NCBI GenBank assembly: GCA_964610105.1
Contig: CAZSUU010000005.1
Span: forward strand, 97,499 to 161,498
DNA: 64,000 nt
Direction: 5' to 3'
Source of the DNA: an uncultured Verrucomicrobiota bacterium
GTDB lineage: Bacteria; Verrucomicrobiota; Kiritimatiellia; PWTM01
The notes below the pieces were generated by a model. It worked only from the letters and a program-made list of their open reading frames with translations, was not told where the DNA came from and ran no database searches. Made by a program: the position numbers and the translations under genes. How positions within the stretch are numbered: position 1 is the first letter of the stretch; every line of letters begins with the position of its first letter. Positions 7,810 through 42,639 of this stretch are shown piece after piece.

Positions 7810-7812
7810 GGG

Positions 7813-8850
<1,038 letters not shown>

Positions 8851-11912: not shown

Positions 11913-11982
11913 GCTTGTACCCGTTTCCGGCCCCCATCGTACCAGACTCCCCCCTCCGCTCGAACTCCCAATCGCACCTCGG

Positions 11983-12079
11983 AGTTCAGCGTTCGGTGTT
12001 CAGTGTTCAGTGTTCAGTGTTCGGTGTTCAGTGTTCAGTGTTCGGTGTTCAGTGTTCGGTGTTCAGTGTTCGGAGTTCA
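11983..12079. repeat. Tandem heptamer array (TGTTCRG) x14
   Basis: About 14 consecutive units TGTTCAG/TGTTCGG read directly from the sequence, upstream of nadB. Confidence 0.95.
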
Positions 12080-12141
12080 TCGGCGACCGAAGGAACGGGG
12101 CGGTTTGAACCACCTCGTCCTTCCTGGTCCGTCCGTGTTCC

Positions 12142-13311
12142 TCAGGGGCCTGACGCGCGGTTGGCTGCGCCCTCCCCGCGCTCCCGCCCGTAGATGGGGA
12201 ACTCCAGCAGGCGGCATTCGATCGGGCCGTTGAACAGCGTGCGGATGCGGCCGGCCTTGAGCCCGATGCGGCGCGAGAGCCGCAGGTTGCCGGTGAACAG
12301 ATACCCGGCCCCGCCCGTCGCCTGGGCGCGGAAGAACCGGCCGATGCGGCGGTAGGTCTCGATCAACTCGTCCTCCTCGCCCATCCGCTCCCCGTATTCC
12401 GGGTTCAGCACGATGCACGGCCGGCCCGGCGGAACCGGGGTATCGGCGAAGTCGCACACCTTCCACTCGATGAACGGTTCGACCCCGGCCGCCCGCGCGT
12501 TGCGCCGGGCGGCCGCCACCGCACCGGGATCGCGGTCGGCGGCGACGAGGCGCGACGCCGGCGCCGGCCGCAGCCGCGCGCGGGCCTCCCGCCGGACCGC
12601 CTCCCAGGCGTCCGGATCATGGCCGCGCAGGTGCAGGAAGGCGAAGTCGCTGCGCGCGAGGGCCGGCGCGCGATGCAGGGCGATCAGGGCCGCCTCGATG
12701 GCCAGCGTCCCGCTGCCGCACATCGGATTGACGAAGGGCGCGCTCCCGTCCCAGCCCGTCGCGAGGACGATGCCGGCCGCGAGCGACTCGCGCAGGGGGG
12801 CCGCGAGCCCGGCGCGCCGGTAGCCGCGGTGCGAGAGGGAGACCCCGGTGGTGTCGAGGTACACGTCGGCCCGCTCGTCTTCCCAGCGCAGGAAAAGCGC
12901 CGCGCCGGCCGTCCGGGGTCCGGAATCCGGCCGCCGGCCCAGCCGCGCGCGCAGGCGGTCGGCCACCGCGTCCTTCAGTTTGAGGGCCCCGTAGCGGGAA
13001 TCCCGGACGGCCGGCGTCCGCACGGACGCGCGGACGGTGAACGGCACGTCGCCGCGCAGCCAGTCCTCCCACGGCAACCGGACGGCGGCGGCGTGAAGAT
13101 CGTCCGGGGTGGCGGCGGCGAACCGCCCCACCCGCATGAGCACGCGATGAGCGGTGCGCAGATGGAGGTTGAGGCGCATCGCCTCCGCCAGTCCCCCGCG
13201 GGCGTGGACGCCCGACTCGCCGGCCGCGGGCGCCGCCTCCAGTCCGAGCGCCGCGACCTCTTCCCGGAGCACATCCGCGAGGCCGCGCGCGCAGGTGGCG
13301 AACAGCGTCAT
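12142..13311 (-). CDS. THUMP-domain RNA methyltransferase (RlmL/YpsC-like)
   Basis: 'FATCARGL', 'LDTTGVSLSHRGYR', 'APLRESLAAG', 'NPMCGSGT', 'LNPEYGER'. Confidence 0.88.
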   Translation of the reverse strand: MTLFATCARGLADVLREEVAALGLEAAPAAGESGVHARGGLAEAMRLNLHLRTAHRVLMRVGRFAAATPDDLHAAAVRLPWEDWLRGDVPFTVRASVRTPAVRDSRYGALKLKDAVADRLRARLGRRPDSGPRTAGAALFLRWEDERADVYLDTTGVSLSHRGYRRAGLAAPLRESLAAGIVLATGWDGSAPFVNPMCGSGTLAIEAALIALHRAPALARSDFAFLHLRGHDPDAWEAVRREARARLRPAPASRLVAADRDPGAVAAARRNARAAGVEPFIEWKVCDFADTPVPPGRPCIVLNPEYGERMGEEDELIETYRRIGRFFRAQATGGAGYLFTGNLRLSRRIGLKAGRIRTLFNGPIECRLLEFPIYGRERGEGAANRASGP

Positions 13312-13372
13312 GCCTTCCGGCGCCCCGTCGGGGGAACGGCTCCGCGCTTGACCGCCCTCTTCGCGCCTTCTA

Positions 13373-14386
13373 ATGTCTCCACCCGTGACCCTACGTGCAT
13401 TCATCCGGACCGCCGGCGTCGCGGCGGCCCTCTGTCTCGTCGGCGGAACCGCCCTCGCCGCGGCCGAACCATACCGCGAAGTCCAGAAGCGGAGAAGCTG
13501 GTTCAGCTTCATGCGGCCCGCCAAGGCGACGCCGCAGGAGCAGCTGGCGTACGCCCGCGCGCTGCGCGCCGGGCGCCATGTCTTCCGCGCCAGCCGCCAC
13601 TATCGCGCCCTGGTGTCCAGCTGGCCGAGCGCCCCGGAGGCCCCCATCGCGCAGCGCGAGATCGCGGAGATGCTGGACGCGCGGGGCTGGATCGAAAGCG
13701 CCTTCGATCAGTACCAGCTGCTCGTGGAGAAGTATCCCGACGCCTGCGACTTCGATGCCGTCATTGCGCGGCAGTACGCGCTGGCGGAACGCATGCGGAC
13801 CGTCCGCCACGCCCCGCTCCTGTTCGGGGGCTGGAGGACGCCGGAGCGCGCGATCCCGCTCTACGAGCGGATCGTGCTCAACGCCCCCATGTGGACCAAC
13901 GCGCCGCAGGTCCAGTTCACGATCGGCGCGCTGCAGGAGGCGGCCGCGAACTACGCCGAAGCCTCGGTGGCCTTCCAGGAAGTGCAGTACCGCTACCCCC
14001 GCAGCCCGCCGGCCGAGGAAGCCGCGTTCCGGCGGGCGCGCTGCCTGTACTGGATGTCGATGGAGGCGCCGAACGACCCCACGACGCTGGACGAGGCATG
14101 GACCGCGCTGAGCCAGTTCGCCCGCGAGCGGCCCGCGTCGCGGTTCGCCTCCGACGCCATGCGGCTCCGCGACACCCTGCAGACCCGCCGCGTCCGCGCC
14201 GCCTACGAGATCGCCTGCTACTACGACCGCCACGGGCGCTCGCCCGAGAACGCGCTCATGGCCTACGAGCGGTTCCTCACCCTCTTCCCGAACACCGAAT
14301 GGACCCCCACCGTCCAGCAACGGCTGGAGGCAATCAAGAAGACCAAGGGAGCGCCGGCAAATGAAACTGGCCAGAAGGATTCGTAA
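13373..14386 (+). CDS. TPR protein, outer-membrane assembly factor BamD-like
   Basis: Signal peptide, repeated TPR helices ('FQEVQYRYPRSPPAEEAAF', 'YERFLTLFPNTEW'); precedes lptE. Confidence 0.75.
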   Translation: MSPPVTLRAFIRTAGVAAALCLVGGTALAAAEPYREVQKRRSWFSFMRPAKATPQEQLAYARALRAGRHVFRASRHYRALVSSWPSAPEAPIAQREIAEMLDARGWIESAFDQYQLLVEKYPDACDFDAVIARQYALAERMRTVRHAPLLFGGWRTPERAIPLYERIVLNAPMWTNAPQVQFTIGALQEAAANYAEASVAFQEVQYRYPRSPPAEEAAFRRARCLYWMSMEAPNDPTTLDEAWTALSQFARERPASRFASDAMRLRDTLQTRRVRAAYEIACYYDRHGRSPENALMAYERFLTLFPNTEWTPTVQQRLEAIKKTKGAPANETGQKDS

Positions 14387-18202: not shown

Positions 18203-19144
18203 ATGAGTGAATCCAACCGCAGGACAGGGCATGTGGACCGGCGCGACTTCCTTCGCATCGCGCTCGCGGGCGGCGGCGTGCTGTGGCTGCCCGCGACTCC
18301 CCGCGCGGCCGAGCCCGGACCGTCGGTGGACGTCTGGGTCATACACGGAGAGGACAAGGCGCGACTGATGGCCGAGGCCCTCAAGATCATCCGCGCCAAC
18401 GGCGGATTCGGGCGGGGTGCGAGGTCGCTGGCGCTGAAGGTCAATGCCGCCTGGACGCGGACGCCGGAGATGGGCGCGTGCACCCATCCCGATCTCGTGT
18501 CGGCGTTCATATCCGGGGCGAAGGAGGATGGTCTGACGAACATCGAGGTGCCCGAGAACCCGTGTAACCGCGCCGAGGAGTCGTTTGCGCGCAGCGGCGT
18601 GGAGGCCGCGGTCAGGAAGGCCGGCGCCAAGATGTACGACCTCAAGAAGGAGGCGCGTTTCTTCGCCGAGACGGCCCTCCCCAGGGGCCGCGTTCTCCAG
18701 AAGGCCAAGGTCGCGAAACAATTCCTGGAAGCGGATGTCGTCGTGAACATGCCGGTGGCCAAGCACCATGGCGCCGCCGTGCTGACCATGGCGATGAAGA
18801 ACTGGATGGGGGCGGTCGAGGACCGGTCGTTCTGGCACCGGAACAACCTCATGCAGTGCATCGCCGACTTCTGCTCGCTGGTCCGGCCGCACTGGACGCT
18901 GATTGACGCCACGCGCGTCATGCTCAAACGAGGCCCGCAGGGCGGCGAGCTCGCCTTCCTGAAGTCGCCGAGCCCGAACCTTCTCATCGTGTCGAAGGAC
19001 CAGGTGGCCGCGGACGCCTATGCGACGATGCTCTTCGACAAGAAGCCGGCGGACGTGGCGTACCTCGGATTCGCGGCGGAGATGAATCTCGGCATCACGG
19101 ACCTCGCCCGCATCAAGGTCCACGCGGTGGAAGCGGGGGCGTGA
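18203..19144 (+). CDS. DUF362 domain protein, Tat-exported
   Basis: 'RRDFL' Tat motif; 'LKVNAAW', 'THPDLV', 'NMPVAKHHGAAVLTMAMKNWMG'. Confidence 0.88.
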   Translation: MSESNRRTGHVDRRDFLRIALAGGGVLWLPATPRAAEPGPSVDVWVIHGEDKARLMAEALKIIRANGGFGRGARSLALKVNAAWTRTPEMGACTHPDLVSAFISGAKEDGLTNIEVPENPCNRAEESFARSGVEAAVRKAGAKMYDLKKEARFFAETALPRGRVLQKAKVAKQFLEADVVVNMPVAKHHGAAVLTMAMKNWMGAVEDRSFWHRNNLMQCIADFCSLVRPHWTLIDATRVMLKRGPQGGELAFLKSPSPNLLIVSKDQVAADAYATMLFDKKPADVAYLGFAAEMNLGITDLARIKVHAVEAGA

Positions 19145-20553
19145 ACTCCTCGCCTCGCGGGGCGCAGCCCGAACCAGCCCCGCCGGCTCCGGCGGGCCGG
19201 CGGAGGGGTCGGGGGATTCGTTGGGGGGTGCGAGGGGCCTGCCTCGCCGCGGCGGTACTCCTGGCCCTGGGGGGGCCGCTGCCCGACATGGTGAAGCGGA
19301 TGTTTCCGTCGCTGAGTCCGCTCACCCTCTGCCTCGACTCGATCACCCAGCGGCGCTGGTACGCGGGCGTGTTCTGGGGTCTTCCCGCGCTCGCGGTGCT
19401 TGCGGCGGCCGTCGCGCGGGGTCGCTTTTTCTGCCGATGGATCTGCCCGGCCGGAACGGTGTATGCCGCAGCGGAACCGATCGCGCTGCGCAAGCCGATC
19501 TGGCGCCGGAAGATCAACGGTGTGCTGTTCTGGACGCTGGCGGCCGGGGCGCTGGCGGGGTTTCCGCTGTTCCTCGGTCTGGACCCCCTGTCCTCCTTCA
19601 ACCGGATGACGCCGCTGCTTCGAGGGTGGCACGGAGTGGCCGTCCTGATCCCCGGCCTGGTGGTGCCGTTGTTCCTCGTGCTCAGCGCCGTCCAGCCGCA
19701 TCTCTGGTGCACGCACTTCTGCCCGCTGGGGTATCTGTTCGACCTGGTGCGCCTCCGCCCGGCGGGCCAGGGCCGACCCGACCGGGTGCGGCGCGACCTG
19801 GTGATCGGCCTCGCCGTGGGCGTCCCGCTGGCCGTGGCCGGCCGGAGGCTTCGTCTCGTCCCCCCTCTCACGGGCGAGCCGGAGTGGCCGGTCCTGCCCC
19901 CGGGCGCCAGACCCGCGATGGAATTCGCCGCCCTGTGCACGCGGTGCTACGCCTGCGTCAACGCCTGTCCCACCGGCGTGATCGGCGTCGGCCCGTTGGC
20001 GGGGCGTCCGGTCGGCCAGTGGTTCCAGCCGGAGCTGAACACGTTGCGCGCCTGCTGCGAGGAATTCTGCACCGCGTGCACGCGGGTCTGTCCCGCGGGC
20101 GCGATCGTGCGGCTGACCGAGGACGAGAAGCGCCACCGCCGCATCGGAACGGCCGTGATCATCCGTGAGGCTTGTCTCGCCTGGGAGGACAAGGAACGCT
20201 GCACGGTCTGCGACGAGTACTGCCCGTACCACGCCATCGAGTTCGACGAGTCGGAGGAGGGCATCCCCCGCCCCATCGTCAACGAGGCCATCTGCCGGGG
20301 GTGTGGCGCCTGCAGCGCCAACTGCCCCGCCGTGCGCGCCGGGTGCGCCATTGTCATCCGCGGGGTGCCGGCCCAGGGCGTAGCGAAGGACTACGTCGAC
20401 GATCCGGCTTCGACGGCCCGCGCCTCCACGAAGAACTCGTCGTCCGCATCGGTGGCGCAGACCACCCGGAATCCGTGCTCCTCCAGCAACCTCGCCGTCC
20501 CCCGCGCGCAGGGCATCCGGTCGTGGCGGACGGGCTCCGAGAATCCCGCGTGA
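19141..20553 (+). CDS. Membrane polyferredoxin (NapH/MauN-like 4Fe-4S binding domains + NapF-like diclusters)
   Basis: 'GRFFCRWICPAG', 'WCTHFCPLG', 'CTRCYACVNACP', 'CTVCDEYCP', 'CRGCGACSANCP'; GTG overlaps DUF362 stop. Confidence 0.88.
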   Translation: MNSSPRGAQPEPAPPAPAGRRRGRGIRWGVRGACLAAAVLLALGGPLPDMVKRMFPSLSPLTLCLDSITQRRWYAGVFWGLPALAVLAAAVARGRFFCRWICPAGTVYAAAEPIALRKPIWRRKINGVLFWTLAAGALAGFPLFLGLDPLSSFNRMTPLLRGWHGVAVLIPGLVVPLFLVLSAVQPHLWCTHFCPLGYLFDLVRLRPAGQGRPDRVRRDLVIGLAVGVPLAVAGRRLRLVPPLTGEPEWPVLPPGARPAMEFAALCTRCYACVNACPTGVIGVGPLAGRPVGQWFQPELNTLRACCEEFCTACTRVCPAGAIVRLTEDEKRHRRIGTAVIIREACLAWEDKERCTVCDEYCPYHAIEFDESEEGIPRPIVNEAICRGCGACSANCPAVRAGCAIVIRGVPAQGVAKDYVDDPASTARASTKNSSSASVAQTTRNPCSSSNLAVPRAQGIRSWRTGSENPA

Positions 20554-21008
20554 AGGGCGTTCAGGCGGGCGCTGCCTTCCAGGTTGGCGATCACCAGCCG
20601 CCCCCCCGGCGCCAGGCCGGGACGAAGATGGCGAAGCACGGCCCCCTTGTCGTCGAAGTGGGGGAAGACGCGGAACAGGATCGCCAGGTCCCAGGCGGCG
20701 GGCTGCAGTTCCACCGTCTCCGCCGCGGCCTCGACCGTCTCGACGTTGCGCCGGCGGCCGAGGCGCCGGCGGCATTCCCGGACCATGCCGGGACTGGCGT
20801 CGAAGGCGAGCACGCGCCCGGCGGGGCCGACCCAGGCGGAGAGGTACTCCGTCAGCGGCCCGACGCCGCAGCCGGGCTCGAGGACCCGCATCCCGGCGAT
20901 GTCCCCGATCCGCTGGCGCAACCTCGCGACCTTGCGGCGGTCGTCGTCCGTGAACAGCAGCGGGTCGTCGCTGACCGCGACCCGGTCGAAGAACGCTCGT
21001 TTGCTCAT
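20391..21008 (-). CDS. Class I SAM-dependent methyltransferase
   Basis: 'VLEPGCGVG', 'FDASPGM', 'VFPHFDDK', 'LAPGGRL'; ATG overlaps permease stop. Confidence 0.85.
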   Translation of the reverse strand: MSKRAFFDRVAVSDDPLLFTDDDRRKVARLRQRIGDIAGMRVLEPGCGVGPLTEYLSAWVGPAGRVLAFDASPGMVRECRRRLGRRRNVETVEAAAETVELQPAAWDLAILFRVFPHFDDKGAVLRHLRPGLAPGGRLVIANLEGSARLNALHAGFSEPVRHDRMPCARGTARLLEEHGFRVVCATDADDEFFVEARAVEAGSST

Positions 21009-21826
21009 CCCCACCCCCCGCGGGTCACCGCCGCGCCCCGCGCGCCCAACGCGCGCAGGCCCAGGGCGGCGGCGTACACCAGCGAAGACACCAGCACGAT
21101 GCTCGCGCCGGCCGGCCAATCGAGCCCGAACGACAGGGCCAGCCCCCCCGCGGCGCAGAGCGCGCCCAGCCCCATGGCCCCCGCGACGGCGGCCCGGTAC
21201 GTCCGCGCGAATTGCAGGGCCGCCACCGCCGGATTGGTCAGCAGGCTGTACAGCATCAGTCCGCCGACGATGTTGAGGTTCACGGTGACCGTGAAACCGC
21301 ACAGCGCGATGATGGCGTAGTAGATCGCCGCGGCGTGAATCCCGCAGGCGCGCGCGATCTCGCGGTCGAACAGGACCGCCTTGGTCTCCTTGGCGAAGAC
21401 GACCAGCAGAATCAGCGGCAGCAGCCACGCCAGGACCAGCGGCGGCAGGTCCGCCCAGCGCACCAGCAGCAGGTTGCCCCACATCAGGCCGAGCAGCTCC
21501 GAGCGCTGATCCTGCATGAGGCCGATCCCGAGGAAGGCGAGCCCGAGGGTCAGGGAGAACAGGATGCTCATGACCGTATTGGCGTGCGTGCGCGTGCGGT
21601 CGGCGAGCGGCCCGACCAGGGCGGCGACGCCCAGCGAGAACGCGAGGGCGGTGCCCACGACGGGCGTGCCCAGGAAGTGCGCCAGCACCGCGCCGGCCAG
21701 CGCGGCGTGCGCCAGGCAGACGCCCATGAACGGCAGGTTCAGCGAGATCAGCAGGAAGCCGGCCAGGCCGCAGCCGGCGCCGCCGACCAGCGCCGTCAAC
21801 AGCCACTTCGCCTGGAGCGCCGTCAT
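21005..21826 (-). CDS. Metal ABC transporter permease (ZnuB/ABC-3 family)
   Basis: 'HAALAG', 'LMWGNLL', 'LFDREIARACG', 'VGGLMLYSLLTNPA'. Confidence 0.9.
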   Translation of the reverse strand: MTALQAKWLLTALVGGAGCGLAGFLLISLNLPFMGVCLAHAALAGAVLAHFLGTPVVGTALAFSLGVAALVGPLADRTRTHANTVMSILFSLTLGLAFLGIGLMQDQRSELLGLMWGNLLLVRWADLPPLVLAWLLPLILLVVFAKETKAVLFDREIARACGIHAAAIYYAIIALCGFTVTVNLNIVGGLMLYSLLTNPAVAALQFARTYRAAVAGAMGLGALCAAGGLALSFGLDWPAGASIVLVSSLVYAAALGLRALGARGAAVTRGGWG

Positions 21827-22617
21827 CGCAGGACCTCCGGCAGGACGACGTACCGTCCGTCCGTCTCGAGGATGCGCAGCGGCAGCCCGTAGAGATCCGA
21901 CAGCAGCGCGCCGTCCATGGCCTCCGCGAGCGTGCCCATGCGGACCAGGCGGCCGCCGCTGAGGATGGCCCCGTGCGTGATACCGGTCGGCAGATGCCGG
22001 GGATCGTGGGTGACCATGATCACCGTCAGACCCGAGCCCCGCCACATCCGGCCGACCAGCTGCGTGATCGCCTCCTGCCAGCGCAGATCGAGATGGCCGG
22101 CCGGCTCGTCCAGAAGGAGGAGATCCGGCTGCTGCGCCAGGGCGCGGGCGAGATGGACCTTGCGCTGCTCGCCTCCCGACAGCACGCCGAAGGAGCGGTC
22201 GGCAATCCGGTCCAGCTCCACCTGCCGCATCACGTGGTCGCAGATGCTCCGGTCGTCCGGAGTCAACGGCCGGCCCGGCCCCCTCACGCCGGCGCGGCCC
22301 GTCTCCACGACCTCCCGCACGGACAGCGGCATGACCGAGGCGGCCCGCGCATGCAGCTGCGGAACGTAGCCGATGCGCCTCCGCAGCCGGCCGCGCGCGA
22401 GCGGGGAGAGCCGGGACACGTCGGCGTCCAGCACCCGCAGGCTGCCCGAGAAGGGGACCAGCGCCGGGATCGTGTTCAGGAGCGTGGTCTTCCCGGCGCC
22501 GTTCGGTCCCAGCACGGCCAGGAAGGCGCCCCGGGGGAGGGAGAACGACACGTCGTCGAGGATGACGGTCCGCTGCTGTCGTACGGTCAGCCGGACCATG
22601 TCGACGGCCGCGGTCAC
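21823..22617 (-). CDS. Metal ABC transporter ATP-binding protein
   Basis: 'GPNGAGKTT', 'LSGGEQRK', 'LLLLDEP'. Confidence 0.92.
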   Translation of the reverse strand: MTAAVDMVRLTVRQQRTVILDDVSFSLPRGAFLAVLGPNGAGKTTLLNTIPALVPFSGSLRVLDADVSRLSPLARGRLRRRIGYVPQLHARAASVMPLSVREVVETGRAGVRGPGRPLTPDDRSICDHVMRQVELDRIADRSFGVLSGGEQRKVHLARALAQQPDLLLLDEPAGHLDLRWQEAITQLVGRMWRGSGLTVIMVTHDPRHLPTGITHGAILSGGRLVRMGTLAEAMDGALLSDLYGLPLRILETDGRYVVLPEVLR

Positions 22618-23429
22618 GGGAATCCCTTCTGAAGGGCGCTCAGATTGGCCTCCAGCAGCCGCCAGTAGGCCCCCGCCTCGCCGCCGTCGGGGAAGTTGCT
22701 CAGCATGATCCCCGGCAGCCGGGAGGCCTCGGCCAGCGCCTCCAGGTGGCGGGGCCCCCACTGCAGGTTGCCGATGACCGCCTCGGCGCCCGCCGTGCGG
22801 GCCATGTCCACGGCGCGGCTGAGCTGGAAGGCCGATTCGTCGGTCCCGGCCTGGAAACTCGCGACCGCGTCGAGGCCCAGCCACCGGCAGAAATCGCGCT
22901 GGTAGCGGGCGCAGAGCACCTTCCGGCCCCGGAGCCGCGCCGTCCGCGCGGCCAGCGCCTTCTCCGCCTCCGCCGCCCGGCTCCGCACGCCGGCCAGTCC
23001 GGTCTGAATCCCGGCGGCCTTCTCCGGCCACGCCCGCGCCAGGCGCTCCGCCAGCTCCGCGCACATGGCCGTGTAGTGGGCGGGAATGGTGAAGGCGGGA
23101 CGCGACGCGAGCGCCACGATGCGGTTCGTCGACAATCCGCTCTTCGCCACCCCCGCATCGAGGCTGCCCTGGAAATCGTGCCGGATGAAGAGCCCCGCGG
23201 AGGAGAGGCGCCTGACCTGGCCGGGATCGAGATCAAAATGCCCGGGGCAGGACCCGGGCGGCATCAGGCGCACCACCGGCGCACCGTCCCCCATGAGATC
23301 GCGCACGGCCGTCTCGATGAGCGTGGTGGTCACGACGATGCCCCCGCCCGGCGTCGCCTCCCCGGCGCACGCGGGGCGCGCCATGCCGGCCAGGACGAGC
23401 AACGACCCCGCTATCCATCCGCGGTTCAT
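22614..23429 (-). CDS. Metal ABC transporter substrate-binding protein (ZnuA/TroA fold)
   Basis: Signal peptide; 'IVVTTTLIETAVRDLMG', 'LMPPGSCPGHFDL', 'FIRHDFQ'. Confidence 0.8.
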   Translation of the reverse strand: MNRGWIAGSLLVLAGMARPACAGEATPGGGIVVTTTLIETAVRDLMGDGAPVVRLMPPGSCPGHFDLDPGQVRRLSSAGLFIRHDFQGSLDAGVAKSGLSTNRIVALASRPAFTIPAHYTAMCAELAERLARAWPEKAAGIQTGLAGVRSRAAEAEKALAARTARLRGRKVLCARYQRDFCRWLGLDAVASFQAGTDESAFQLSRAVDMARTAGAEAVIGNLQWGPRHLEALAEASRLPGIMLSNFPDGGEAGAYWRLLEANLSALQKGFP

Positions 23430-24058
23430 GGCGTCTGAAAGGCGTCCCTCCCCCGGGGCTTTATGCGGGCGATCACCCCGTGGTCGCCGGTCTCCCGGTA
23501 CCACGTGAAGGCCGGAATCGGCGCCCGCGCGTTCAGGGCCTTCTCCTGGCCCTGGCGGGGGCCCAGGCTCCACACCACCCAGTCCAGCGGAACCTCCGCG
23601 TCCTCCCGGTAGCGGCCGTCGTCGCTCTGGCAGGCCGGGAAATCGTCGGGGACGAACATGGCGAAGTTCTCCTCCTGCGGCGAGCCGTTGAGGAGGTACG
23701 GCCCGATGGTCGCGTACTTGTACGTGCGCCCGCGGTTGAAAGGGTCCTCCATCCCGCACGACATGCCGCCCCGTCCGCCGCCGGGCAGGTAGTCGCCCTC
23801 GGCCAGCTCGGGCGGGAGCTGGCACCAGTGGTCGCGCTCGCTGGTGTTGCACGAGACGCGCACGGGCGGATACCGCCGCTGGTCCTGGAAGTACATCTCC
23901 AGCGCCAGGCCGATCTGCCGCAGCTCGACGAGCGCCTTGGTCACGCGCGCCTTCTCGCGGGCGGGCGACAGGGCCGGCGCCAGCAGGGCGATCAGCAGCC
24001 CGATGATCCCGACGACCACCAGGAGTTCCACCAGCGTGAATCCGGCGCGCCGCGTCAT
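23426..24058 (-). CDS. Prepilin-type N-terminal cleavage/methylation domain protein
   Basis: Class III signal 'RRAG|FTLVELLVVVGIIGLLIALLAPAL', then 'AREKARVTKALVELRQIG'; Cys pair 'VSCNTSERDHWC'. Confidence 0.92.
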   Translation of the reverse strand: MTRRAGFTLVELLVVVGIIGLLIALLAPALSPAREKARVTKALVELRQIGLALEMYFQDQRRYPPVRVSCNTSERDHWCQLPPELAEGDYLPGGGRGGMSCGMEDPFNRGRTYKYATIGPYLLNGSPQEENFAMFVPDDFPACQSDDGRYREDAEVPLDWVVWSLGPRQGQEKALNARAPIPAFTWYRETGDHGVIARIKPRGRDAFQTP

Positions 24059-24060
24059 GG

Positions 24061-25194
24061 TCAATCCTGTTGCCTCAATCGGTAGAACCTGGCCGGACCG
24101 CCGGCGGCGGCCGGGTCCTCTTCCACCGCGATCCACCTCGCGGGCGGCGATTCCACGCGCTGCCAGCCCGACGTGGCGGTCAGGTTCGTCGTGAATTCCA
24201 GGGCGTAATTCGTGTAGGTCGCCGGCCAGTAGATCAGGGTCGTCCCGCCGCTCGACGCCACGCGCAGCGTCGGCCCGATCTCCTGCACGAACAGCTCGTA
24301 GCCGAACGTGCCGTCCGTCCCCGACCCGGACTCCTGGTTGAGGATGCCGACGGCCGAGAACCAGCCCGAGGGCGCGGGACCCAGGTCGGCCCGCGGCATG
24401 CGCAGGGGGAAGAACCGCCCCTCGCCATCGGTCGCCGTGCACAGGCGATCGGCCCATGCCGACGCGCCCCACCCGCCCGATCCGTAGTAGTTGGTCGCCA
24501 TGCGGATGGACTCCAGGCGCACCCGCATCCCCTGGTAGCGCTCGCCCCCGCTCAGGCGGTCCTGGTCGAAGATGTCCTCGCGCGTCCCGGGATCGTCGTC
24601 ATCGACGCGCACGAGGTCGGAGAGGTGCAATACCTCCGGCTCCGGGAGACCGTACCCCGCCTGCACCAGGGAGATCGCGAAGTCGTTGGCGTTGGTGATC
24701 CGGTGCGACTCGTTGACGTTGCGCTTGCCCCCGTAGAACAGCGACTTGCGCGCCGTCACCTCCACCAGGTCGCCCTTGCGGAAGCGGCGCAGGGTGTTCG
24801 GGTCGTAATGGACCCGCTGCATTTCGTTCGACCACTCCGCCTCCGGGTAGCTGTTGCCGGGCGGGACGAACGGGCCTATGCTGTTGTAGTTCTGTCCCAT
24901 CCACAGGGCCGTGCCTCCCCGATCGCCGCCCGCCGCCGCCTGGATGAAGATCTGCCACTCCGCGCCCATGCGGTTGCCGCCCTCCGCGCCCGGATCCCAC
25001 GCGGCGTCGAGCATCTCCTCGGGATCGTTCAGGATCACCCCCTGCAGGGCGAACGGATGCGTCCCCGCCCACGCGCTGACGCCGGCGGCGTCGACCGCCT
25101 GCAGGGCCGCGTGCGTCTCCGCCCACCCCCATTCCGCCCCGCCCGCCAGCAGTCCCAGCACCACCGCCGCCATCCGCGCGCCGTCGCACTTCAT
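24061..25194 (-). CDS. Secreted/surface protein with OB-fold-like segments and C-terminal FYR-type domain
   Basis: Signal peptide; 'RKGDLVEV', 'YQGMRVRL'; C-terminus 'TLIYWPAT..YALEFTTNL...W...ARFYRLRQQD'. Confidence 0.75.
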   Translation of the reverse strand: MKCDGARMAAVVLGLLAGGAEWGWAETHAALQAVDAAGVSAWAGTHPFALQGVILNDPEEMLDAAWDPGAEGGNRMGAEWQIFIQAAAGGDRGGTALWMGQNYNSIGPFVPPGNSYPEAEWSNEMQRVHYDPNTLRRFRKGDLVEVTARKSLFYGGKRNVNESHRITNANDFAISLVQAGYGLPEPEVLHLSDLVRVDDDDPGTREDIFDQDRLSGGERYQGMRVRLESIRMATNYYGSGGWGASAWADRLCTATDGEGRFFPLRMPRADLGPAPSGWFSAVGILNQESGSGTDGTFGYELFVQEIGPTLRVASSGGTTLIYWPATYTNYALEFTTNLTATSGWQRVESPPARWIAVEEDPAAAGGPARFYRLRQQD

Positions 25195-25228
25195 TCCTTC
25201 ACCCCTTCCGACGAACCGTTCCAGAACC

Positions 25229-25262
25229 GTAACAACTTACTTGAAATCGTAACACGAAGCAA
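25229..25262 (-). promoter_or_regulatory. sigma70-type promoter (TTGCTT-N17-TAAGTT) overlapped by candidate NikR operator (GTGTTAC-N13-TTGTTAC)
   Basis: Minus-strand -35 at 25257-25262, -10 at 25234-25239, 17-nt spacer, 40 nt upstream of ATG 25194; AT-rich island; repeat half-sites at 25229-25235 and 25249-25255. Confidence 0.6.
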
Positions 25263-25424
25263 CACGGAAATCGCGGCGCGCAACCGAAGGGCCACGAGCA
25301 CGCGGCGAGGGCGGCGCGTCCCCCGACGGCGTCCCGTGTTCCCCTGGAAATGCGGCCGGGCCGCTCGCCCATGGTCGACAGGCCGGCGGCGGGCAGGGCG
25401 AGGGCTCCGACCGGGCCGCGGCGC

Positions 25425-25838
25425 TCAGGGGAGATGGGCGCCGGTGGTGCCGGCGGCGAGGGAGACGTGCTTCAGTCCTTTGACGGCTTTCAGACGCCTG
25501 GCGATGGCATCGATCCGAATTGGCTCGCCGCGCACCGCGACGATCTCGAGACAGTTGTCGTGGTCCAGGTGGATGTGCTGGGTCGAGATGATGGACTCGT
25601 GGCAGTCGTGCTGGACGTCGGTGAGCTTGCGGACGATATCGCGCTTGTGGTGGTCATAGACGAGGACGATCGCCCCCGCCACCTCCGCCCCCTTCTGCCA
25701 TTCCGCCCGGACAAGGGCGCCGCGGATCAGGTCGCCCACCGCCTTGGATCGGGTCGGACAACGCTCGGCCTTGATCTTCCGGTCGAACCGGGCGACCAGT
25801 TCCCTGTCGAGCGACACACTGAACCTGACCAGCGACAT
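25425..25838 (-). CDS. nikR: Nickel-responsive regulator NikR
   Basis: RHH N-terminus 'VRFSVSLD', 'RSKAVGDLIR'; metal site 'VYDHH', 'STQHIHLDHDNCLE'. Confidence 0.95.
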   Translation of the reverse strand: MSLVRFSVSLDRELVARFDRKIKAERCPTRSKAVGDLIRGALVRAEWQKGAEVAGAIVLVYDHHKRDIVRKLTDVQHDCHESIISTQHIHLDHDNCLEIVAVRGEPIRIDAIARRLKAVKGLKHVSLAAGTTGAHLP

Positions 25839-26113
25839 ATCTTCACCATGGGTTGACCGGCGGCCACGCTATCACGCCCCCTCCCCCGCCGCAATGCCGT
25901 CCCGCCCGATCGCGATCTGCGCGCAGGGGGGGGCTAGACTCACGACGAGACCGCGTCGCCCTACCCTCCGTGGATTCGGCAAGCCGACCCGGTGAGGCGG
26001 CGAGGCTCGAAAGGCCGCGCCGGTCATGCACCCGGCCTCCGGGGGCCGGGGAGGCCTCTCGGCACACCTCCGCCGGCGCAGCGGCGGGGCGGGCCTCCGC
26101 CCCGCGCCCCGGC

Positions 26114-26148
26114 ACAGCCGCGGGCGGCGCAACACCGCCCGCGGCTGT
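26114..26148. terminator. 14-bp perfect hairpin downstream of the peroxiredoxin gene (no U-tract)
   Basis: ACAGCCGCGGGCGG-cgcaaca-CCGCCCGCGGCTGT, 10 nt past the stop at 26158. Confidence 0.5.
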
Positions 26149-26157
26149 CCCGCGCGT

Positions 26158-26841
26158 CTATTTGGACGGGCACTTCTTCAGGCACATGAACCAGTCGAGA
26201 CACTTCACGTCTTCGTCCGGCTTCTCCATGCGATCCTTCGCCGTGCCGCAGGAACCCGGAGGCGGCACGATCACGTCGTCGCCCGGCTGCCAGTTGGCGG
26301 GCGTCGCGATCTTGAACTGGTCCGAGTACTGCATGGCCACCAGCAGGCGCTTCACCTCGTCCATGTTCCGCCCGTTCGAGAGCGGGTAGTACAGGATCGC
26401 CCGGACGATGCCGTTGGGGTCGATGATGAACACCGCCCGGACGGCCTGGGTGTTGCTGGCGCCCGGCTGCAGCATGCCGAAGGCCTTCGACACCTCCATC
26501 GTCAGGTCGCTGATCACCGGGAACATGACCTCGACGTTCTTCATGTCCTTGTAGGCGATCTTCTCCTTGATCGTCCGCAGCCACGCGATGTGGCTGTAGG
26601 TGCTGTCGATCGAGAGGCCGAGCAGCTTGCAGTTCAGCTTCTCGAACTCCGGCGCCATCGTGGCGAAGGTCATGAACTCGGTGGTGCACACCGGCGTGAA
26701 GTCCGCCGGATGCGAGAAGAACACGACCCACTTCCCCTTGAAGTCGTCCGGAAAGTTGATCGGTCCCTGCGTCGTCTCCGCCTTGAAGGCCGGGGCCTTC
26801 TCCCCGATCAGGGGCAAGCGTACGGTTCCTTCTTCACACAT
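26158..26841 (-). CDS. Peroxiredoxin (Prx6/archaeal-type)
   Basis: 'FFSHPADFTPVCTTEF', 'GRNMDE', 'ATPANW', C-terminal 'CLDWFMC'. Confidence 0.93.
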   Translation of the reverse strand: MCEEGTVRLPLIGEKAPAFKAETTQGPINFPDDFKGKWVVFFSHPADFTPVCTTEFMTFATMAPEFEKLNCKLLGLSIDSTYSHIAWLRTIKEKIAYKDMKNVEVMFPVISDLTMEVSKAFGMLQPGASNTQAVRAVFIIDPNGIVRAILYYPLSNGRNMDEVKRLLVAMQYSDQFKIATPANWQPGDDVIVPPPGSCGTAKDRMEKPDEDVKCLDWFMCLKKCPSK

Positions 26842-29199: not shown

Positions 29200-30489
29200 T
29201 CAGTGGTCACAGACATTATCTCCGGTTTGAAGCGTGCCGGCGAGATAGGCTTCCACCAGCGCTTCCGGCGTCTCCGCCGGGGCGCCGACCTGGACCGCGA
29301 TGCCGTTTTGCTTGAACAGCGCCTGCGCCCGGCTGCCCATCCCACCGGCTATGATCATGGTCGCGCCTTGCTCGTGCAGCCATCGCGGCAGCACTCCCGG
29401 TTCGTGGGGTGGCGGATCGAGCATCCGCTTGCCCACGATCTTCTTCGTCTTCTCGTCCACCTCCACCAGGGCGAACTGCTCGCAGTGTCCGAAATGCATG
29501 CACAGCTTCCCTTCCGCCACCGGTATCGCAATCTTCATGATGTCTCCTGTTTCCTTCTGGCTCACCGCAGTCTCGGAAACGTCCTTGGTCTCGTCCGCCC
29601 GAACCAGTATCTGCGCGGTCACCCGCTCAAAGGCCTTGGCCGTCTCCGTCCGCCCATAGTGGTAGACGAACGGCATGCCGGCATCGCACGCCTCGCCGAC
29701 TGCCGGGTCGATCGGGATGCGGCCGAGAAAGGGCACGCCCGTCTCCCGCGCCATCTGTTCCCCGCCGCCCGACTTGAAGATATCCGTGACCTCCCCGCAC
29801 TTCGGGCAGACGAATCCGCTCATGTTCTCGACGACGCCCAGCACGGGCAGGTTCAGCTGCCGGCAGAAACCGATGGACCGGCGGACATCGGCGGTCGACA
29901 CCTCCTGCGGCGTGGTGACCACGATCGCCCCGTCCGCGTTCTGCACCAACTGGCACACCGACAGCGGCTCGTCGCCCGTCCCCGGCGGCGAATCGATCAC
30001 CAGGTAGTCCAGCTCGCCCCAGTCCACATCCTGGAGGAACTGCCGGATGACGTTCATCTTCATCGGCCCCCGCCAGATCACCGCGTCGTCGGAGTTCCGG
30101 AGCAGGAAGCCGATGGACATGATCTTCAGCCCGGCCTTCGCCACCGGTTGAATCGCGCCGTCCCTGACCTGGGCCCGCGCGTCGTCCAGCCGCAGCATCT
30201 TGGGGATGCTGGGGCCGTGGATGTCGACATCCAGCAGGCCGACCTTCCTTCCCGCGAGGGCGAGCGAGATCGCCAGGTTCGCCGCGACCGTGCTCTTGCC
30301 CACCCCGCCCTTGCCGGAGAGGACGATGATCTTGTGTCGAATCAGGCCCATGCGCTCCTGGAGCGCCTTGTGTTCGAGCCACGCGTCGAGGGACTGTTCC
30401 TCGCCGCGGGTCGTCGAGGGGCCGGCCGCCCCCTGCCCCGCCGCGCAACCCATATTCTCCGCCTCACGCTTTCCGCTGTCGTCTGCCAT
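29200..30489 (-). CDS. Mrp/NBP35 (ApbC) Fe-S carrier ATPase fused to NifB/NifX domain (Mrp-ORP type)
   Basis: 'SGKGGVGKST', 'DVDIHGPS', 'IWRGPMK', 'DSPPGTGD', 'FVCPKC'; C-terminal 'MKIAIPVAEGKLCMHFGHCEQF...GGMG'. Confidence 0.92.
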   Translation of the reverse strand: MADDSGKREAENMGCAAGQGAAGPSTTRGEEQSLDAWLEHKALQERMGLIRHKIIVLSGKGGVGKSTVAANLAISLALAGRKVGLLDVDIHGPSIPKMLRLDDARAQVRDGAIQPVAKAGLKIMSIGFLLRNSDDAVIWRGPMKMNVIRQFLQDVDWGELDYLVIDSPPGTGDEPLSVCQLVQNADGAIVVTTPQEVSTADVRRSIGFCRQLNLPVLGVVENMSGFVCPKCGEVTDIFKSGGGEQMARETGVPFLGRIPIDPAVGEACDAGMPFVYHYGRTETAKAFERVTAQILVRADETKDVSETAVSQKETGDIMKIAIPVAEGKLCMHFGHCEQFALVEVDEKTKKIVGKRMLDPPPHEPGVLPRWLHEQGATMIIAGGMGSRAQALFKQNGIAVQVGAPAETPEALVEAYLAGTLQTGDNVCDH

Positions 30490-30510
30490 GTCTGTTCCTT
30501 TCGTTTGCCG

Positions 30511-31347
30511 TCAGAACTCGAACCTCGTGCCGGCGCCGCCGGCCAGGCATTTCGCGCCGAAGGCCGTCTGCATGGCCGCCGCGGCCCTCTCCCCCGTGCA
30601 GTGCAGGGGGCAGAGGACCCCGACATCCATCCGGCACAGCGCGTCGACGGTCCACGCGATCCGCGCATCGGACGCCGCACGCAGGTGCATGCCGCCGATT
30701 ACGGCGCGCAGGGCCTGGCCCTCCGCCAGGTGCCGGACACGGTCCAGGGTGTTGATCACGCCGGCATGCGCGCAACCCAGCAGCACGACGAGGCCGGATG
30801 GCGTCAGCACGTACAGCGCCTGGTCGTCGACCACCGGATCGCCGCGCCCGCCGTCCTCGTCCAGAAAAAACCCCTCTTCGCCGCGTTCCTCGGCGTGCCG
30901 CCGGGGAATCACGCCGGTCAGGAAGACGCCCGCCGCAATCTCGGTCGGTTTCTCGACCGGACAGAACCGCACCTGCGGACGGCGCAGGGCCTCGCGGGCG
31001 CGACCGGGAATCCCGATATAGCGCGCGACGGAACCCGCCCGGTGGTACTTGGACGGGAGGGCGTCCGGATGAAGATAGACGGCGACGGGCCCCGCCACGC
31101 ACGCCAGCACGTCCGCCAGCCCGCCGGTGTGATCGTAATGACCGTGGCTCAGCGCGATCGTGTCGACGGCGCCGAGGTCGATGCCCAGCGCCGTCGCGTT
31201 GGCGCACACCAGGCCGCTCTGCCCCGTATCGAAAAGAACGCGGTCCGTGGCGGTTTCGATCCAGAAGGCCAGCCCGTGTTCCGACCCCACGTCGGGGCGG
31301 GCGGCGCGGTTCTCCACGAGGACGGTGATGTTCACGTTCAGGGGCAT
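30511..31347 (-). CDS. MBL-fold metallo-hydrolase
   Basis: 'SEHGLAF', 'LFDTG', 'LSHGHYDHTGGL', 'DDQAL', 'GCAHAG', 'GGMHL', 'HCTG'. Confidence 0.88.
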   Translation of the reverse strand: MPLNVNITVLVENRAARPDVGSEHGLAFWIETATDRVLFDTGQSGLVCANATALGIDLGAVDTIALSHGHYDHTGGLADVLACVAGPVAVYLHPDALPSKYHRAGSVARYIGIPGRAREALRRPQVRFCPVEKPTEIAAGVFLTGVIPRRHAEERGEEGFFLDEDGGRGDPVVDDQALYVLTPSGLVVLLGCAHAGVINTLDRVRHLAEGQALRAVIGGMHLRAASDARIAWTVDALCRMDVGVLCPLHCTGERAAAAMQTAFGAKCLAGGAGTRFEF

Positions 31348-32213
31348 AGCGCCTCCCATACGGCCCGGACGTCGGCCCCCGCGACCGTCGCAGGCAGCTC
31401 GACCACCGCCTTGCCCCGCACCTGCGCCTCCGTGACCGCGCGATCGTAGCGGACGCGCCCCGCCAGCCGCGCGCCTCTGGCCCGCGACTCCCCCTCGATC
31501 CGCTCCGCCATCTCCGGGTTCAGGTCCCACTTGTTCACGCACACGGCCGCGGGGATCCCGAAGTGGCCCGTGAGGTCCAGGACCCGCGCCAGATCGTGCG
31601 CGCCCGAAAGGGTGGGCTCGGTGACCACGACCACAAGGGATGCGCCCGTGATCGAGGCGATCACCGGGCAGCCGATCCCCGGGGGGCCGTCGACAAGGAC
31701 GACGTCCGCCTTCCGCTCTCCGGCCAGCGACCGGGCGGTCTCCCGCACCTGGCTGACCAGCTTGCCCGAGTTCTCGCCGCCGGGATTCAGACGGGCGTGG
31801 ACCATGGGGCCGTGCCGGGTGTTCGAAACGTACCACTCGCCGGCCTCGCGCTCGCGGAAGTCGATCGCCTTGACCGGGCAATGGTCCACGCACACCCGGC
31901 ATCCTTCGCAGGCGGTCGGATCGATCGAGAAATCCGCCTCGCCCGCCCGGCCCGGACCCTTCCTCACCGCGCCGAACCGGCATCGCGCGAGGCAGGCGCC
32001 GCAGCGGAGGCAATCCGCCCGCCGGATGGCCGCCTCGTGCCCGCAGCGAAACGGCTCGCGGCGGAGAATCTCCGGCGCCAGCACCAGGTGCAGGTCGGCC
32101 GCATCGACGTCGCAGTCGGCCAGCACGGCCTTCCGCGCCAGCGCGGCGAAGGAGGCAACGATGCTCGTCTTGCCGGTGCCGCCCTTGCCGCTGATGACCA
32201 CGATTTCCTTCAT
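31338..32213 (-). CDS. MinD-superfamily P-loop ATPase with 4Fe-4S insert (orp-type)
   Basis: 'ISGKGGTGKTS', 'DCDVDAADLH', 'CLRCGAC..RC', 'CEGCRVC..HCP', 'NSGKLV', 'DGPPGIGCP'. Confidence 0.92.
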   Translation of the reverse strand: MKEIVVISGKGGTGKTSIVASFAALARKAVLADCDVDAADLHLVLAPEILRREPFRCGHEAAIRRADCLRCGACLARCRFGAVRKGPGRAGEADFSIDPTACEGCRVCVDHCPVKAIDFREREAGEWYVSNTRHGPMVHARLNPGGENSGKLVSQVRETARSLAGERKADVVLVDGPPGIGCPVIASITGASLVVVVTEPTLSGAHDLARVLDLTGHFGIPAAVCVNKWDLNPEMAERIEGESRARGARLAGRVRYDRAVTEAQVRGKAVVELPATVAGADVRAVWEALCP

Positions 32214-33103
32214 GGATGCGACCGTCGATTCGATCCCTTCGCTCCGTTCCGAGAGTCTTTCACCACCAGCGCACCCACGGGGGCGCCGATGACCTCCGCG
32301 ATCTTGGGGCACTTGACGGTGAGCAGGAAGAACACGTTCTTATGGGTGTCCGACAAGGTCTCGTAGTTGCCCTGGCCTTTGGCGACGATCAGATCGGCGC
32401 GGTCAAACCGGGAACGGAACTCCTCCGAGCACTCCTCGATCACCGTGCCCGGCGCGTCGGATCCGTTGTCGATGACCGGGGCGATGCGAGAGATGCCGGC
32501 CACCTCCGCGTCGGGCCGCGTGGCGTCGTTGATCGCCGGAGCCCCGCGCACAACTACCGTCACCCTCCCGCGGGGAAGCGCCTCGACCAGCAGGCGGTCG
32601 AAGACGATCTCGCCCGCATTGTCCGCGAGGTAGAGGATGCGGCGGGCGCGATCGGCGGCCCGGAACAGGGCGGCGACGCTGCCGACCAGCGGCATGTCCC
32701 ATATTCCATCCAGGTGCGCCGGCAGGTCCTCCGGGGCGAGGCGGTTCTTCGACCCGGCATCCAGCAGGTTCCCGGCGATCGCCATGCGCACCGCGGCCTC
32801 GCGCGGATTGCGATGGCGGCGAGCGGCGACGCTCATGGCGGGCAGCAGGTCCAGGGCCATCCGGTTCATCCGATCCTTGAGCGGACGGTAGGGGTCCGAC
32901 TGTCCGGTTTCTTCGCGGATCAGCCGCTGGATGCGTTGTGAAATCGCCACCGGCATGACCGCCCAGTCGGCGTCGGCGATCTCGTACAGCAGACGGCGCA
33001 GGATGCGTTCCTGCCGCCGCTTCCCGACCGCCGACATCTCGACGGCCTCCACCGCCTGGCGGACAAAGCACGGAATGCATTCAAGAGCAGTTTTCATCTT
33101 CAC
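32210..33103 (-). CDS. DUF89/ARMT1-like damage-control phosphatase
   Basis: 'CIPCF', 'DPY..K', 'AGNLLD', 'DNAGEI.FD', 'KGQGNYE'. Confidence 0.9.
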   Translation of the reverse strand: MKMKTALECIPCFVRQAVEAVEMSAVGKRRQERILRRLLYEIADADWAVMPVAISQRIQRLIREETGQSDPYRPLKDRMNRMALDLLPAMSVAARRHRNPREAAVRMAIAGNLLDAGSKNRLAPEDLPAHLDGIWDMPLVGSVAALFRAADRARRILYLADNAGEIVFDRLLVEALPRGRVTVVVRGAPAINDATRPDAEVAGISRIAPVIDNGSDAPGTVIEECSEEFRSRFDRADLIVAKGQGNYETLSDTHKNVFFLLTVKCPKIAEVIGAPVGALVVKDSRNGAKGSNRRSHP

Positions 33104-41075: not shown

Positions 41076-41078
41076 GGG

Positions 41079-41432: not shown

Positions 41433-41434
41433 GA

Positions 41435-42634: not shown

Positions 42635-42639
42635 ACGGA

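Follow-up and report, generated by a model that had tools for sequence, protein, structure and literature searches.

A NikR-linked operon that places a secreted protein of a new family and a prepilin-like protein ahead of a ZnuABC-type importer: a candidate nickel-acquisition system of Verrucomicrobiota and their relatives

Introduction

How does nickel reach an inner-membrane importer in a bacterium whose NikR-linked metal-uptake operon carries no gene for a TonB-dependent receptor? The question is raised by a locus in a stretch of 64,000 nucleotides (nt), here called the window, of contig CAZSUU010000005.1 (assembly GCA_964610105.1, positions 97,499-161,498), which comes from an uncultured Verrucomicrobiota bacterium (Kiritimatiellia; PWTM01) and has a G+C content of about 70%. 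Between positions 25838 and 20391 of the window, a gene for the nickel-responsive regulator NikR is followed by six genes encoding a secreted protein of 377 amino acids (aa), a prepilin-like protein, the three components of an ATP-binding cassette (ABC) importer and a methyltransferase. An initial annotation had read these genes as a metal-uptake operon in which the first two proteins capture a nickel or cobalt chelate at the outer membrane instead of a TonB-dependent receptor.

Few bacteria have a known route for nickel across the outer envelope. A comparative genomic study recognised almost no nickel transporters in the few genomes then available from Verrucomicrobiota, Kiritimatiellia, Lentisphaerota and Planctomycetota, groups of the Planctomycetes-Verrucomicrobia-Chlamydiae (PVC) superphylum (PMC2667541). 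The searchable literature on NikR with prepilins, on Verrucomicrobia and Planctomycetes, on DUF1559 and on the combination of FmdE, ABC genes and methyltransferases yielded no description of this module or of a NikR-controlled pilin. The analysis presented here inclines us to read the locus as a NikR-repressed nickel-acquisition operon with an extracytoplasmic front end ahead of a ZnuABC-type importer, and probably as an undescribed route of nickel acquisition. The conserved core of this module is the secreted protein together with the pilin, not the ABC system, and the finding is stronger than the initial annotation because conservation of this pair, NikR boxes included, extends over the superphylum.

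Organization of the operon

All real genes between positions 20391 and 25838 lie on the minus strand. The nikR gene (25838-25425) encodes a ribbon-helix-helix repressor of 137 aa with RHH_1 and NikR_C domains and a match to NF003381, and a spacer of 230 nt separates it from the open reading frame (ORF) of the 377-aa protein (25194-24061), which has a signal peptide and belongs to a new family. This is followed by the gene of the prepilin/pseudopilin-like protein (24058-23426, 210 aa; PF07963 and TIGR02532), and then by those of a ZnuA/TroA-class periplasmic metal-binding protein, hereafter the substrate-binding protein or SBP (23429-22614, 271 aa; PF01297), an ABC transporter ATPase with a GTG start (22617-21823, 264 aa; ABC_tran, PF00005), an ABC-3 family metal importer permease (21826-21005, 273 aa; PF00950) and a cytoplasmic class I methyltransferase dependent on S-adenosylmethionine (SAM) (21008-20391, 205 aa; Methyltransf_23/25/11/12). 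The genes of the importer are thus encoded together, and their products exceed the family cutoffs (76 vs 29 bits for PF01297, 143.8 vs 20.1 for PF00950 and 100.1 vs 25 for PF00005). Each protein assignment of the initial annotation was borne out by Pfam and NCBIfam, the 377-aa protein being the one without a match.

The gene order and the tight junctions described initially were also confirmed. The TGA stop codon of the 377-aa ORF is followed by two nucleotides (CC) and then by the ATG of the prepilin at 24058; the prepilin and SBP genes share an ATGA overlap (SBP start at 23429, prepilin end at 23426), the SBP and ATPase genes a GTGA overlap (22617/22614), and ATGA overlaps recur between ATPase and permease (21826/21823) and between permease and methyltransferase (21008/21005). 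This translational coupling is found both in the window and in orthologs, and the ATPase orthologs retain the 4-nt overlap. The identical order of seven genes, with its overlaps, is repeated in related contigs (loci L002, L006-L008 and L014, of which L002 and L008 are the same contig retrieved twice), which argues that the arrangement is not due to chance. A promoter had been placed between nikR and the 377-aa ORF. What stands of that claim is an AT-rich patch, the sole one of the region, which lies in the 230-nt spacer and holds a NikR-type box; a scan of positions 20000-26300 for the sigma-70 consensus gave zero matches. Terminator-like signals were found three times against 1.4 expected, once within the SBP gene, and were judged to be chance occurrences.

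Conservation and linkage

Detectable homologs of the 377-aa protein number more than 800. Comparison of the family profile with 1.84 billion representative proteins recovered 479 clusters (50% identity) at E<=1e-3, of which 167 reached E<=1e-30. For the study of gene neighbourhoods, one genome per GTDB species was scanned for relatives of this protein, and the loci of the best 80 of 198 relatives were analysed. According to the taxon labels as deposited, these 80 loci are mostly from Verrucomicrobiota, with others from Kiritimatiellia, Lentisphaerota/Victivallales, Phycisphaerae/Planctomycetaceae and Omnitrophota.

Linkage was counted in the 55 informative genome loci that had sufficient flanking DNA. 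In 54 of the 55, the gene that comes immediately after that of the 377-aa protein is the orthologous prepilin gene. NikR is encoded near the 377-aa gene in 31 loci (about 56%), a ZnuABC-type importer adjoins the pair in 24 (about 44%), and a methyltransferase gene is near in 25; hidden Markov model searches gave a concordant picture. It is because the pairing is near-obligate, with NikR present in about 56% of loci and importer plus methyltransferase in about 44%, that we regard the secreted protein and the pilin as the core. The count was repeated from the side of the pilin in a separate collection, made up of 329 pilin relatives on metagenome contigs. Among the 54 metagenome loci with at least 700 nt 5' of the pilin gene, 48 have the 377-aa gene directly upstream, and in the six exceptions the pilin gene still adjoins ABC, NikR or methyltransferase genes. 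Homologs of the two proteins are therefore almost always found together, often with NikR and a ZnuABC-type importer, as the initial annotation required of its proposal.

The order of the genes varies among clades. Kiritimatiellia-like loci share the order nikR, box, pair, ABC genes and methyltransferase. Many Verrucomicrobiota have the methyltransferase gene divergent from the pair, with the box between them and with the ABC genes and nikR following the pair; another clade has nikR and the pair co-transcribed without ABC genes, and other loci have the pair followed by nikR. That the linkage is kept despite such rearrangement points to function rather than to frozen synteny.

Two further arrangements were observed. 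The cultured Fontisphaera persica (CP116615.1; L001:7251-9188) has the secreted-protein gene divergent from the orthologous methyltransferase gene, with NikR-type half-sites in the shared spacer and no pilin, NikR or ZnuABC genes near. Besides, a fusion of about 520 aa between a nucleoside-hydrolase-like (inosine-uridine) domain and FmdE is encoded divergently from or beside the pair in 15 verrucomicrobial loci, which include L055 of a Limisphaera sp. (11826-13463, plus strand), L025, L032, L035, L040, L041, L058, L059, L061, L063, L064 and L069 and are mostly devoid of ABC genes. As this fusion shares the NikR-box region with the pair, it is probably a further member of the NikR regulon.

NikR and its binding sites

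The regulator is a bona fide NikR, to judge from its sequence. It scores above the cutoffs of NF003381 (154.4 vs 105 bits), NikR_C (101.7 vs 22 bits, 2.5e-29) and RHH_1 (25.3 vs 20.5 bits), and residues H77, H88, H90 and C96 are found in every one of the 47 orthologs, that of the window included. By motif comparison, we take these four residues to be the counterparts of the E. coli high-affinity nickel site formed by His76, His87, His89 and Cys95.

The NikR signal of delta-proteobacteria has been described as GTGTTAC-[N13/14]-GTAACAC, and a reversed orientation of the half-sites is also known (Rodionov et al., PMC545781). The window holds a candidate NikR-type operator, GTGTTAC-N13-TTGTTAC (25229-25255, read on the minus strand), located 35-61 nt 5' of the ATG at 25194. 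Its left half-site matches the consensus perfectly and is the only GTGTTAC in the 64 kb; its right half-site is flipped, as it is in the close relatives L006 and L014. A degenerate bipartite pattern matched the window once against zero expected, a result of little weight on its own since the pattern was designed after the site had been seen. When the upstream regions of eight Kiritimatiellia-like loci were aligned, the sole conserved block was the box (T.TTACG ... GT..TAC).

Sites resembling GTrTTAC-N13/14-GTAAyAC were scored out of 14 in both collections; the scoring matrix was made after inspecting the same regions and the acceptance windows were generous, so that the counts are descriptive. 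The genome loci, 1.31 Mb in all, contain 50 sites with a score of 13 or more, and all but one of these (49) lie just 5' of nikR, of the divergent methyltransferase gene or of the gene for the 377-aa protein; a site with a score of 12 or more is present in 66 of the 80 loci. Where nikR heads the operon, high-scoring boxes sit just upstream of nikR, and boxes also occur where nikR is not adjacent (L025, L027, L063, L065, L070 and L077). Across the 0.52 Mb covered in the metagenome set, 51 of 53 high-scoring sites fall in the 5' regions of module genes, including sites upstream of the pilin gene where the 377-aa gene is missing. NikR-type boxes thus mark the module almost exclusively, and their concentration is extreme. 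The control by NikR put forward in the initial annotation is well in keeping with the box before the first gene, with its being the sole conserved upstream block and with its association with the module in two collections, all of which are features read from sequence. Many verrucomicrobial loci show in addition a second NikR-type box at the beginning of the gene for the secreted protein, where it overlaps the start codon (ATGAACGTAACAC, coding for Met-Asn-Val-Thr), for example at L046:9959-9986, L078:2225-2252 and L083:9878-9905; this hints at a start that is leaderless or embedded in the operator. No riboswitch emerged when the window and seven nikR-less loci were scanned at the Rfam gathering thresholds.

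Membership in a NikR regulon could also be explained without nickel acquisition, if the pair served to sequester or buffer nickel in the envelope under activation by NikR, or performed some nickel-switched envelope function. NikR both activates and represses in some species, the pair occurs with NikR alone and no transporter near in 19 of the 55 loci, and a relative of the secreted protein (P0336) is fused to a weak CorA-like copper-binding domain, which suggests metal binding and not transport. Against this, the pair is co-transcribed with the importer in the window, as it is in about 44% of loci, the pilin stays with the importer where the 377-aa gene is missing (L096 and L141), and the distance of 35-61 nt between the box and the start codon, within the AT-rich patch presumed to be the promoter, fits repression. 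We give this explanation some credit and consider it unlikely.

The secreted protein

The 377-aa protein matched no Pfam or NCBIfam family, and a profile search of the PDB was empty even at E=10. A confident AlphaFold model (predicted local distance difference test, pLDDT, 85.6; predicted template modelling score, pTM, 0.80) predicts, after the signal peptide, two barrels resembling the oligonucleotide/oligosaccharide-binding (OB) fold and a C-terminal beta-sandwich similar to immunoglobulin (Ig) or fibronectin type III (FnIII) domains; FnIII and Ig domains were indeed the Foldseek matches of the C-terminus. Relatives retain the first 300 residues or so, and their tail is replaced by PEP-CTERM, dockerin or PATR elements. 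Pfam scans of the long relatives found only such surface-sorting tails together with weak DUF5689 and CorA-like matches. The signal peptide and the sorting tails of the relatives make it plausible that the protein is exported and is located on the cell surface or secreted, as had been supposed initially. One long relative, P0336 (967 aa), has the conserved module of 350 aa at its C-terminus and, upstream of it, the weak match to a methanotroph CorA-like copper(I)-binding domain (32.3 vs 27 bits).

Residues H28, D91, D142, N159, N161, E162, H164, E218, C252 and D256 are invariant or nearly so in the family. His28 is kept in 79 of 83 sequences and lies within an x-Thr-His motif (ETH in 49 of the 83) directly after the hydrophobic signal sequence. 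Under a crude (-3,-1) cleavage rule, a histidine would be placed at position 1 of the mature protein in 57 of 79 sequences and at position 3 in 37 of 79. Position 3 is that of amino-terminal copper- and nickel-binding (ATCUN) sites, and position 1 that of histidine-brace sites or of the hook of nickel superoxide dismutase (NiSOD). We regard the N-terminal histidine as suggestive only of a nickel- or copper-binding motif.

A quite different possibility is that the protein is an ordinary secreted cargo, such as an OB protein that binds nucleic acids or polysaccharides, accompanied by a pseudopilin and devoid of any role with metals, the neighbourhood being inherited synteny. Its best fold matches are OB folds that bind single-stranded DNA (RPA, SSB and POT1), some relatives have the weak DUF5689 matches mentioned above, and pilin-like genes are hugely expanded in PVC genomes. 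These fold matches, however, have template modelling (TM) scores at chance level, NikR boxes are found almost only before the module in several phyla and with differing gene orders, and the linkage survives rearrangement, whether nikR is upstream, downstream or divergent and whether the methyltransferase gene is divergent or terminal. We consider such a cargo function very improbable.

The prepilin-like protein

The second protein of the pair begins with a class III signal peptide (MTRRAG/FTLVELLVVVGIIGLL), in which a short basic leader precedes a hydrophobic helix and the cleavage junction is MTRRAG/FTLVELL. It scores above the cutoffs of PF07963 (27.8 vs 21.2) and TIGR02532 (23.1 vs 16.3), and it misses those of every named pilin family, among which GspG, PilA, ComGC and DUF1559/H-X9-DG were considered (48.5 vs 88.85 for GspG and 19.9 vs 23.3 for DUF1559). 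Gly-1, Phe+1 and Glu+5 are invariant in this subfamily, E11, which corresponds to Glu+5, being present in 79 of 79 sequences. Glu+5 is typical of subunits that enter filaments. The AlphaFold model (pLDDT 90.9) predicts a long helix at the N-terminus, spanning residues 9-60, and a globular head, which contains the motifs CNx6HWC (a loop), MEDPFNPGHTYKY, PDDFP and WxxWSLGP. Comparison with the PDB found no solved relative of the head; only the N-terminal helix matched, weakly, PulG and EpsG.

PVC genomes hold dozens to hundreds of pilin-like genes. The 64-kb window contains a single prepilin motif, and there are no peptidase or assembly genes near the operon. Assembly of this pilin into a filament is compatible with the invariant Glu5, though no assembly genes are linked. 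A dedicated assembly machinery was considered and rejected: E, F and secretin genes of a type II secretion system (T2SS) lie beside nikR only in L002/L008, which we treat as a coincidence.

The importer and the methyltransferase

The SBP belongs to the ZnuA family (4.3e-21; PF01297, 76 bits). Its profile found only distant relatives of ZnuA, SitA and PsaA in the PDB (the best being ZnuA 2xh8, E=3.8e-6), where a single-sequence search found no match. Residue H64 aligns with the ZnuA ligand His60; the other canonical His/Asp ligand positions are not conserved as histidines. C61, H64, D66 and C181 are invariant and C123 is kept in 30 of 32 sequences, so the metal site may be built around His64 and the invariant cysteines and would then be appropriate for a thiophilic ion, Ni(II) for example. 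The permease (PF00950, 9e-42, 143.8 bits) and the ATPase (ABC_tran, 2.1e-28, 100.1 bits) are clear members of their families, and the operon proteins miss the NCBIfam equivalog cutoffs for AztC, AztB, ZnuB and others. None of the operon proteins gave a Pfam or NCBIfam match to NikABCDE, Nik/CbiMNQO, NiCoT, HupE/UreJ or the TonB-dependent FrpB4.

The methyltransferase belongs to a small family and has no signal peptide upon inspection of its sequence; its best NCBIfam matches, CpaM (48.7 bits) and the DVU_1556 family (37.8 bits), are far under the cutoffs. Its gene tracks the ABC genes, with which it occurs in 23 of 24 loci, and not the pilin pair. Distant homologs are encoded directly after a TonB-dependent receptor gene (L085:4037-6606 and L087:4035-6639) or inside an importer operon with FecCD, ABC and Peripla_BP_2 genes that is followed by FmdE and DUF3786 genes (L086:2950-8049). 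These two traits suggest an enzyme that recurrently accompanies metal importers as an accessory. A convergent ferredoxin-like ORF (19141-20553, plus strand) has 163 nt (20391-20553) in common with the 3' end of the methyltransferase gene; its final 60 residues or so extend past the last Fe-S domain, and this tail may be non-coding.

The substrate had been proposed to be a nickel or cobalt chelate. Such a nickelophore route would have the secreted protein bind a nickel-organic complex, the pilin relay it and the methyltransferase make or modify the ligand. The distant methyltransferase homologs beside a TonB receptor or in the FecCD/Peripla_BP_2 operon with FmdE and DUF3786 would agree with it, as would the nucleoside-hydrolase-like/FmdE fusion of the 15 verrucomicrobial loci, which has its NikR-box region in common with the pair, and the best NCBIfam matches of the ATPase, which are chelate-type importers (F420-0, heme and FecE). 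However, the SBP and permease belong to the ZnuA/ABC-3 class, and those of its members with solved structures bind bare ions; metallophore synthesis genes are absent from the operon, no riboswitch was found, and most loci that carry the pair are without the methyltransferase. We find a chelate improbable. Since SBPs of the ZnuA/TroA class bind bare ions, the protein of this operon most likely imports a free ion rather than a chelate.

As to the TonB-dependent receptor, its absence as given in the initial annotation holds for the operon. Searches of 84 related loci with tblastn also found none, although with a single query, which is a weak test, and the view that the pair acts instead of a receptor is derived from absence. 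A second ZnuA/ABC-3 cluster, with a methyltransferase gene nearby, lies at 34.7-37.5 kb of the window (34745-37499, minus strand), where the gene of a ZnuA-type binding protein (36435-37499) precedes two ORFs for ABC-3-like permeases. Its products are not close paralogs of those of the operon, and it was not used as support.

Proposed mechanism

The reading that we favour, a NikR-repressed nickel-acquisition operon, would work as follows. When nickel is plentiful, Ni-NikR would occupy the bipartite box, which overlaps the presumed promoter region, and the operon would be off; when nickel is scarce, the six genes would be expressed as one transcript. Translational coupling would supply the secreted protein and the pilin in fixed proportion. 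The former, with its predicted tandem OB folds, would present the near-invariant histidine at the mature N-terminus or at most two residues from it, as this terminus is predicted, and the pseudopilin-like protein would be anchored by, or assembled through, its N-terminal helix. Together, presumably in physical contact, the two would trap nickel or raise its concentration at the cell envelope, upstream of the importer, and pass it inward, where the SBP, the permease and the ATPase would carry Ni(II), most likely as the free ion, over the inner membrane. The methyltransferase would act as an accessory of the importer, a role suggested by its tracking of the ABC genes and by the position of its distant homologs beside a TonB receptor or a FecCD importer. 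In genomes without linked ABC genes, the pair would hand nickel to a transporter encoded elsewhere.

A more elaborate version can be imagined, in which the OB protein and the pseudopilin form an envelope-spanning capture device: Ni(II) would be bound at the surface through the N-terminal histidine, and a short filament of the type II/IV kind would present it or retract with it through the outer membrane to the periplasmic binding proteins, independently of TonB. We entertain this version as a possibility that is itself doubtful.

Several observations weigh against the reading as an acquisition operon. NikR also activates genes in some bacteria, so the direction of control is assumed. Read manually, the box of the window differs from a strict palindrome at four positions and has one half-site flipped. 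NikR, ABC and methyltransferase genes are all out of reach in 10 of the 55 loci (about 18%), several of which still have boxes. That the 377-aa protein, the pilin or the SBP binds nickel is a prediction. The argument from the N-terminal histidine depends on the crude cleavage rule, and a clade with QTxVxTH fits neither position. The Foldseek comparison with the PDB gave no significant match for the 377-aa model, its best ones being OB folds of RPA, SSB, POT1 and Teb1 at E=1e-3 or weaker, with TM scores of about 0.2 by query and up to 0.55 by target. Finally, secretin, ATPase and prepilin peptidase genes are not linked in the related loci, with the exception of one locus.

Other features of the window

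An operon of the "aerotolerance" type (4886-8934, minus strand), encoding BatA, a DUF58-VWA protein and a MoxR-type AAA ATPase, is consistent with an anaerobic PVC organism. A cluster of the kind seen in anaerobes (29200-34527, minus strand) encodes an Mrp/NBP35-NifX-like fusion, two MinD-like ATPases with 4Fe-4S domains, a protein with the metallo-beta-lactamase fold, an ARMT1-like (DUF89) protein and another class I methyltransferase. The region 39659-49554 (minus strand) contains genes for an ArsP_2-type metal(loid) exporter with ten transmembrane segments, a Cys/Met enzyme dependent on pyridoxal phosphate, a radical SAM protein, two ORFs with methyltransferase domains, DUF5320 and a TrmO-like domain, and may be a metal(loid)- or methylation-related island. 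Positions 59143-59356 (minus strand) match the Rfam group II intron family D1-D4 (RF02001; 35.4 vs a gathering threshold of 32 bits), and no intron-encoded protein was identified nearby.

Comparison with known systems

Secretion and piliation systems offer the closest parallels to the pilin. It shares with T2SS pseudopilins and type IV (minor) pilins the class III signal peptide, the Gly-1/Phe+1/Glu+5 signature and the long N-terminal helix, and differs from them by a head without a solved relative and by a solitary gene without assembly genes. Competence pili provide a precedent for a pilin with a specific binding partner, in that case for the uptake of DNA by retraction. As for the secreted protein, small beta-barrels of the OB fold that handle metals outside the cytoplasm, encoded in operons for uptake or efflux, are represented by CusF and by the DUF3299 protein PA4066 of the Zur-regulated operon PA4063-66. 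PA4066 (4hsp) was among the fold matches, weakly (E=0.35); the 377-aa protein differs in having two predicted barrels and an Ig-like domain and has no sequence similarity to either of them.

The importer belongs to the same SBP, permease and ATPase families as ZnuABC, TroABCD and AztABCD, and an additional extracytoplasmic protein that feeds metal to the SBP recalls the concept of ZinT and AztD. Unlike these importers, however, the system has invariant cysteine residues in place of canonical ligands other than the first histidine, accessory proteins unrelated to ZinT or AztD, and control by NikR, not Zur. The outer-membrane nickel uptake systems FrpB4 and FecA3 of H. pylori likewise place NikR-regulated envelope components before an inner-membrane transporter; whereas these are TonB-dependent, here a secreted OB-like protein and a pilin-like protein hold the genomic place of the receptor.

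The closest parallels in regulation are NikR-nikABCDE of E. coli and NikR-nikMNQO of delta-proteobacteria, where the NikR gene also adjoins the target uptake operon and an ABC importer resides at the inner membrane. The bipartite operator with two 7-nt half-sites placed 13-14 nt apart, of the GTGTTAC/GTAACAC class, is likewise shared (PMC545781). Yet NikABCDE relies on the peptide/nickel class of NikA and NikMNQO is of the energy-coupling factor (ECF) type, whereas the importer described here is of the ZnuA/ABC-3 class. Unlike in those operons, moreover, two exported proteins of new families lead the operon, and within the regulon no other part is as well conserved. Known NikR regulons and cluster A-I importers already have this regulatory logic and this inner-membrane step; it is the front end that is new. 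One pilin subfamily and one secreted family of 479 clusters gain a testable context, that of a NikR regulon with a predicted operator. Should the pair capture nickel, it would represent a new type of front end for metal import and a marker of nickel limitation in environmental metagenomes; should it operate as a filament device, it would be a case of TonB-independent metal uptake at the outer membrane and would give one subfamily of the PVC pilin-like proteins its first function.

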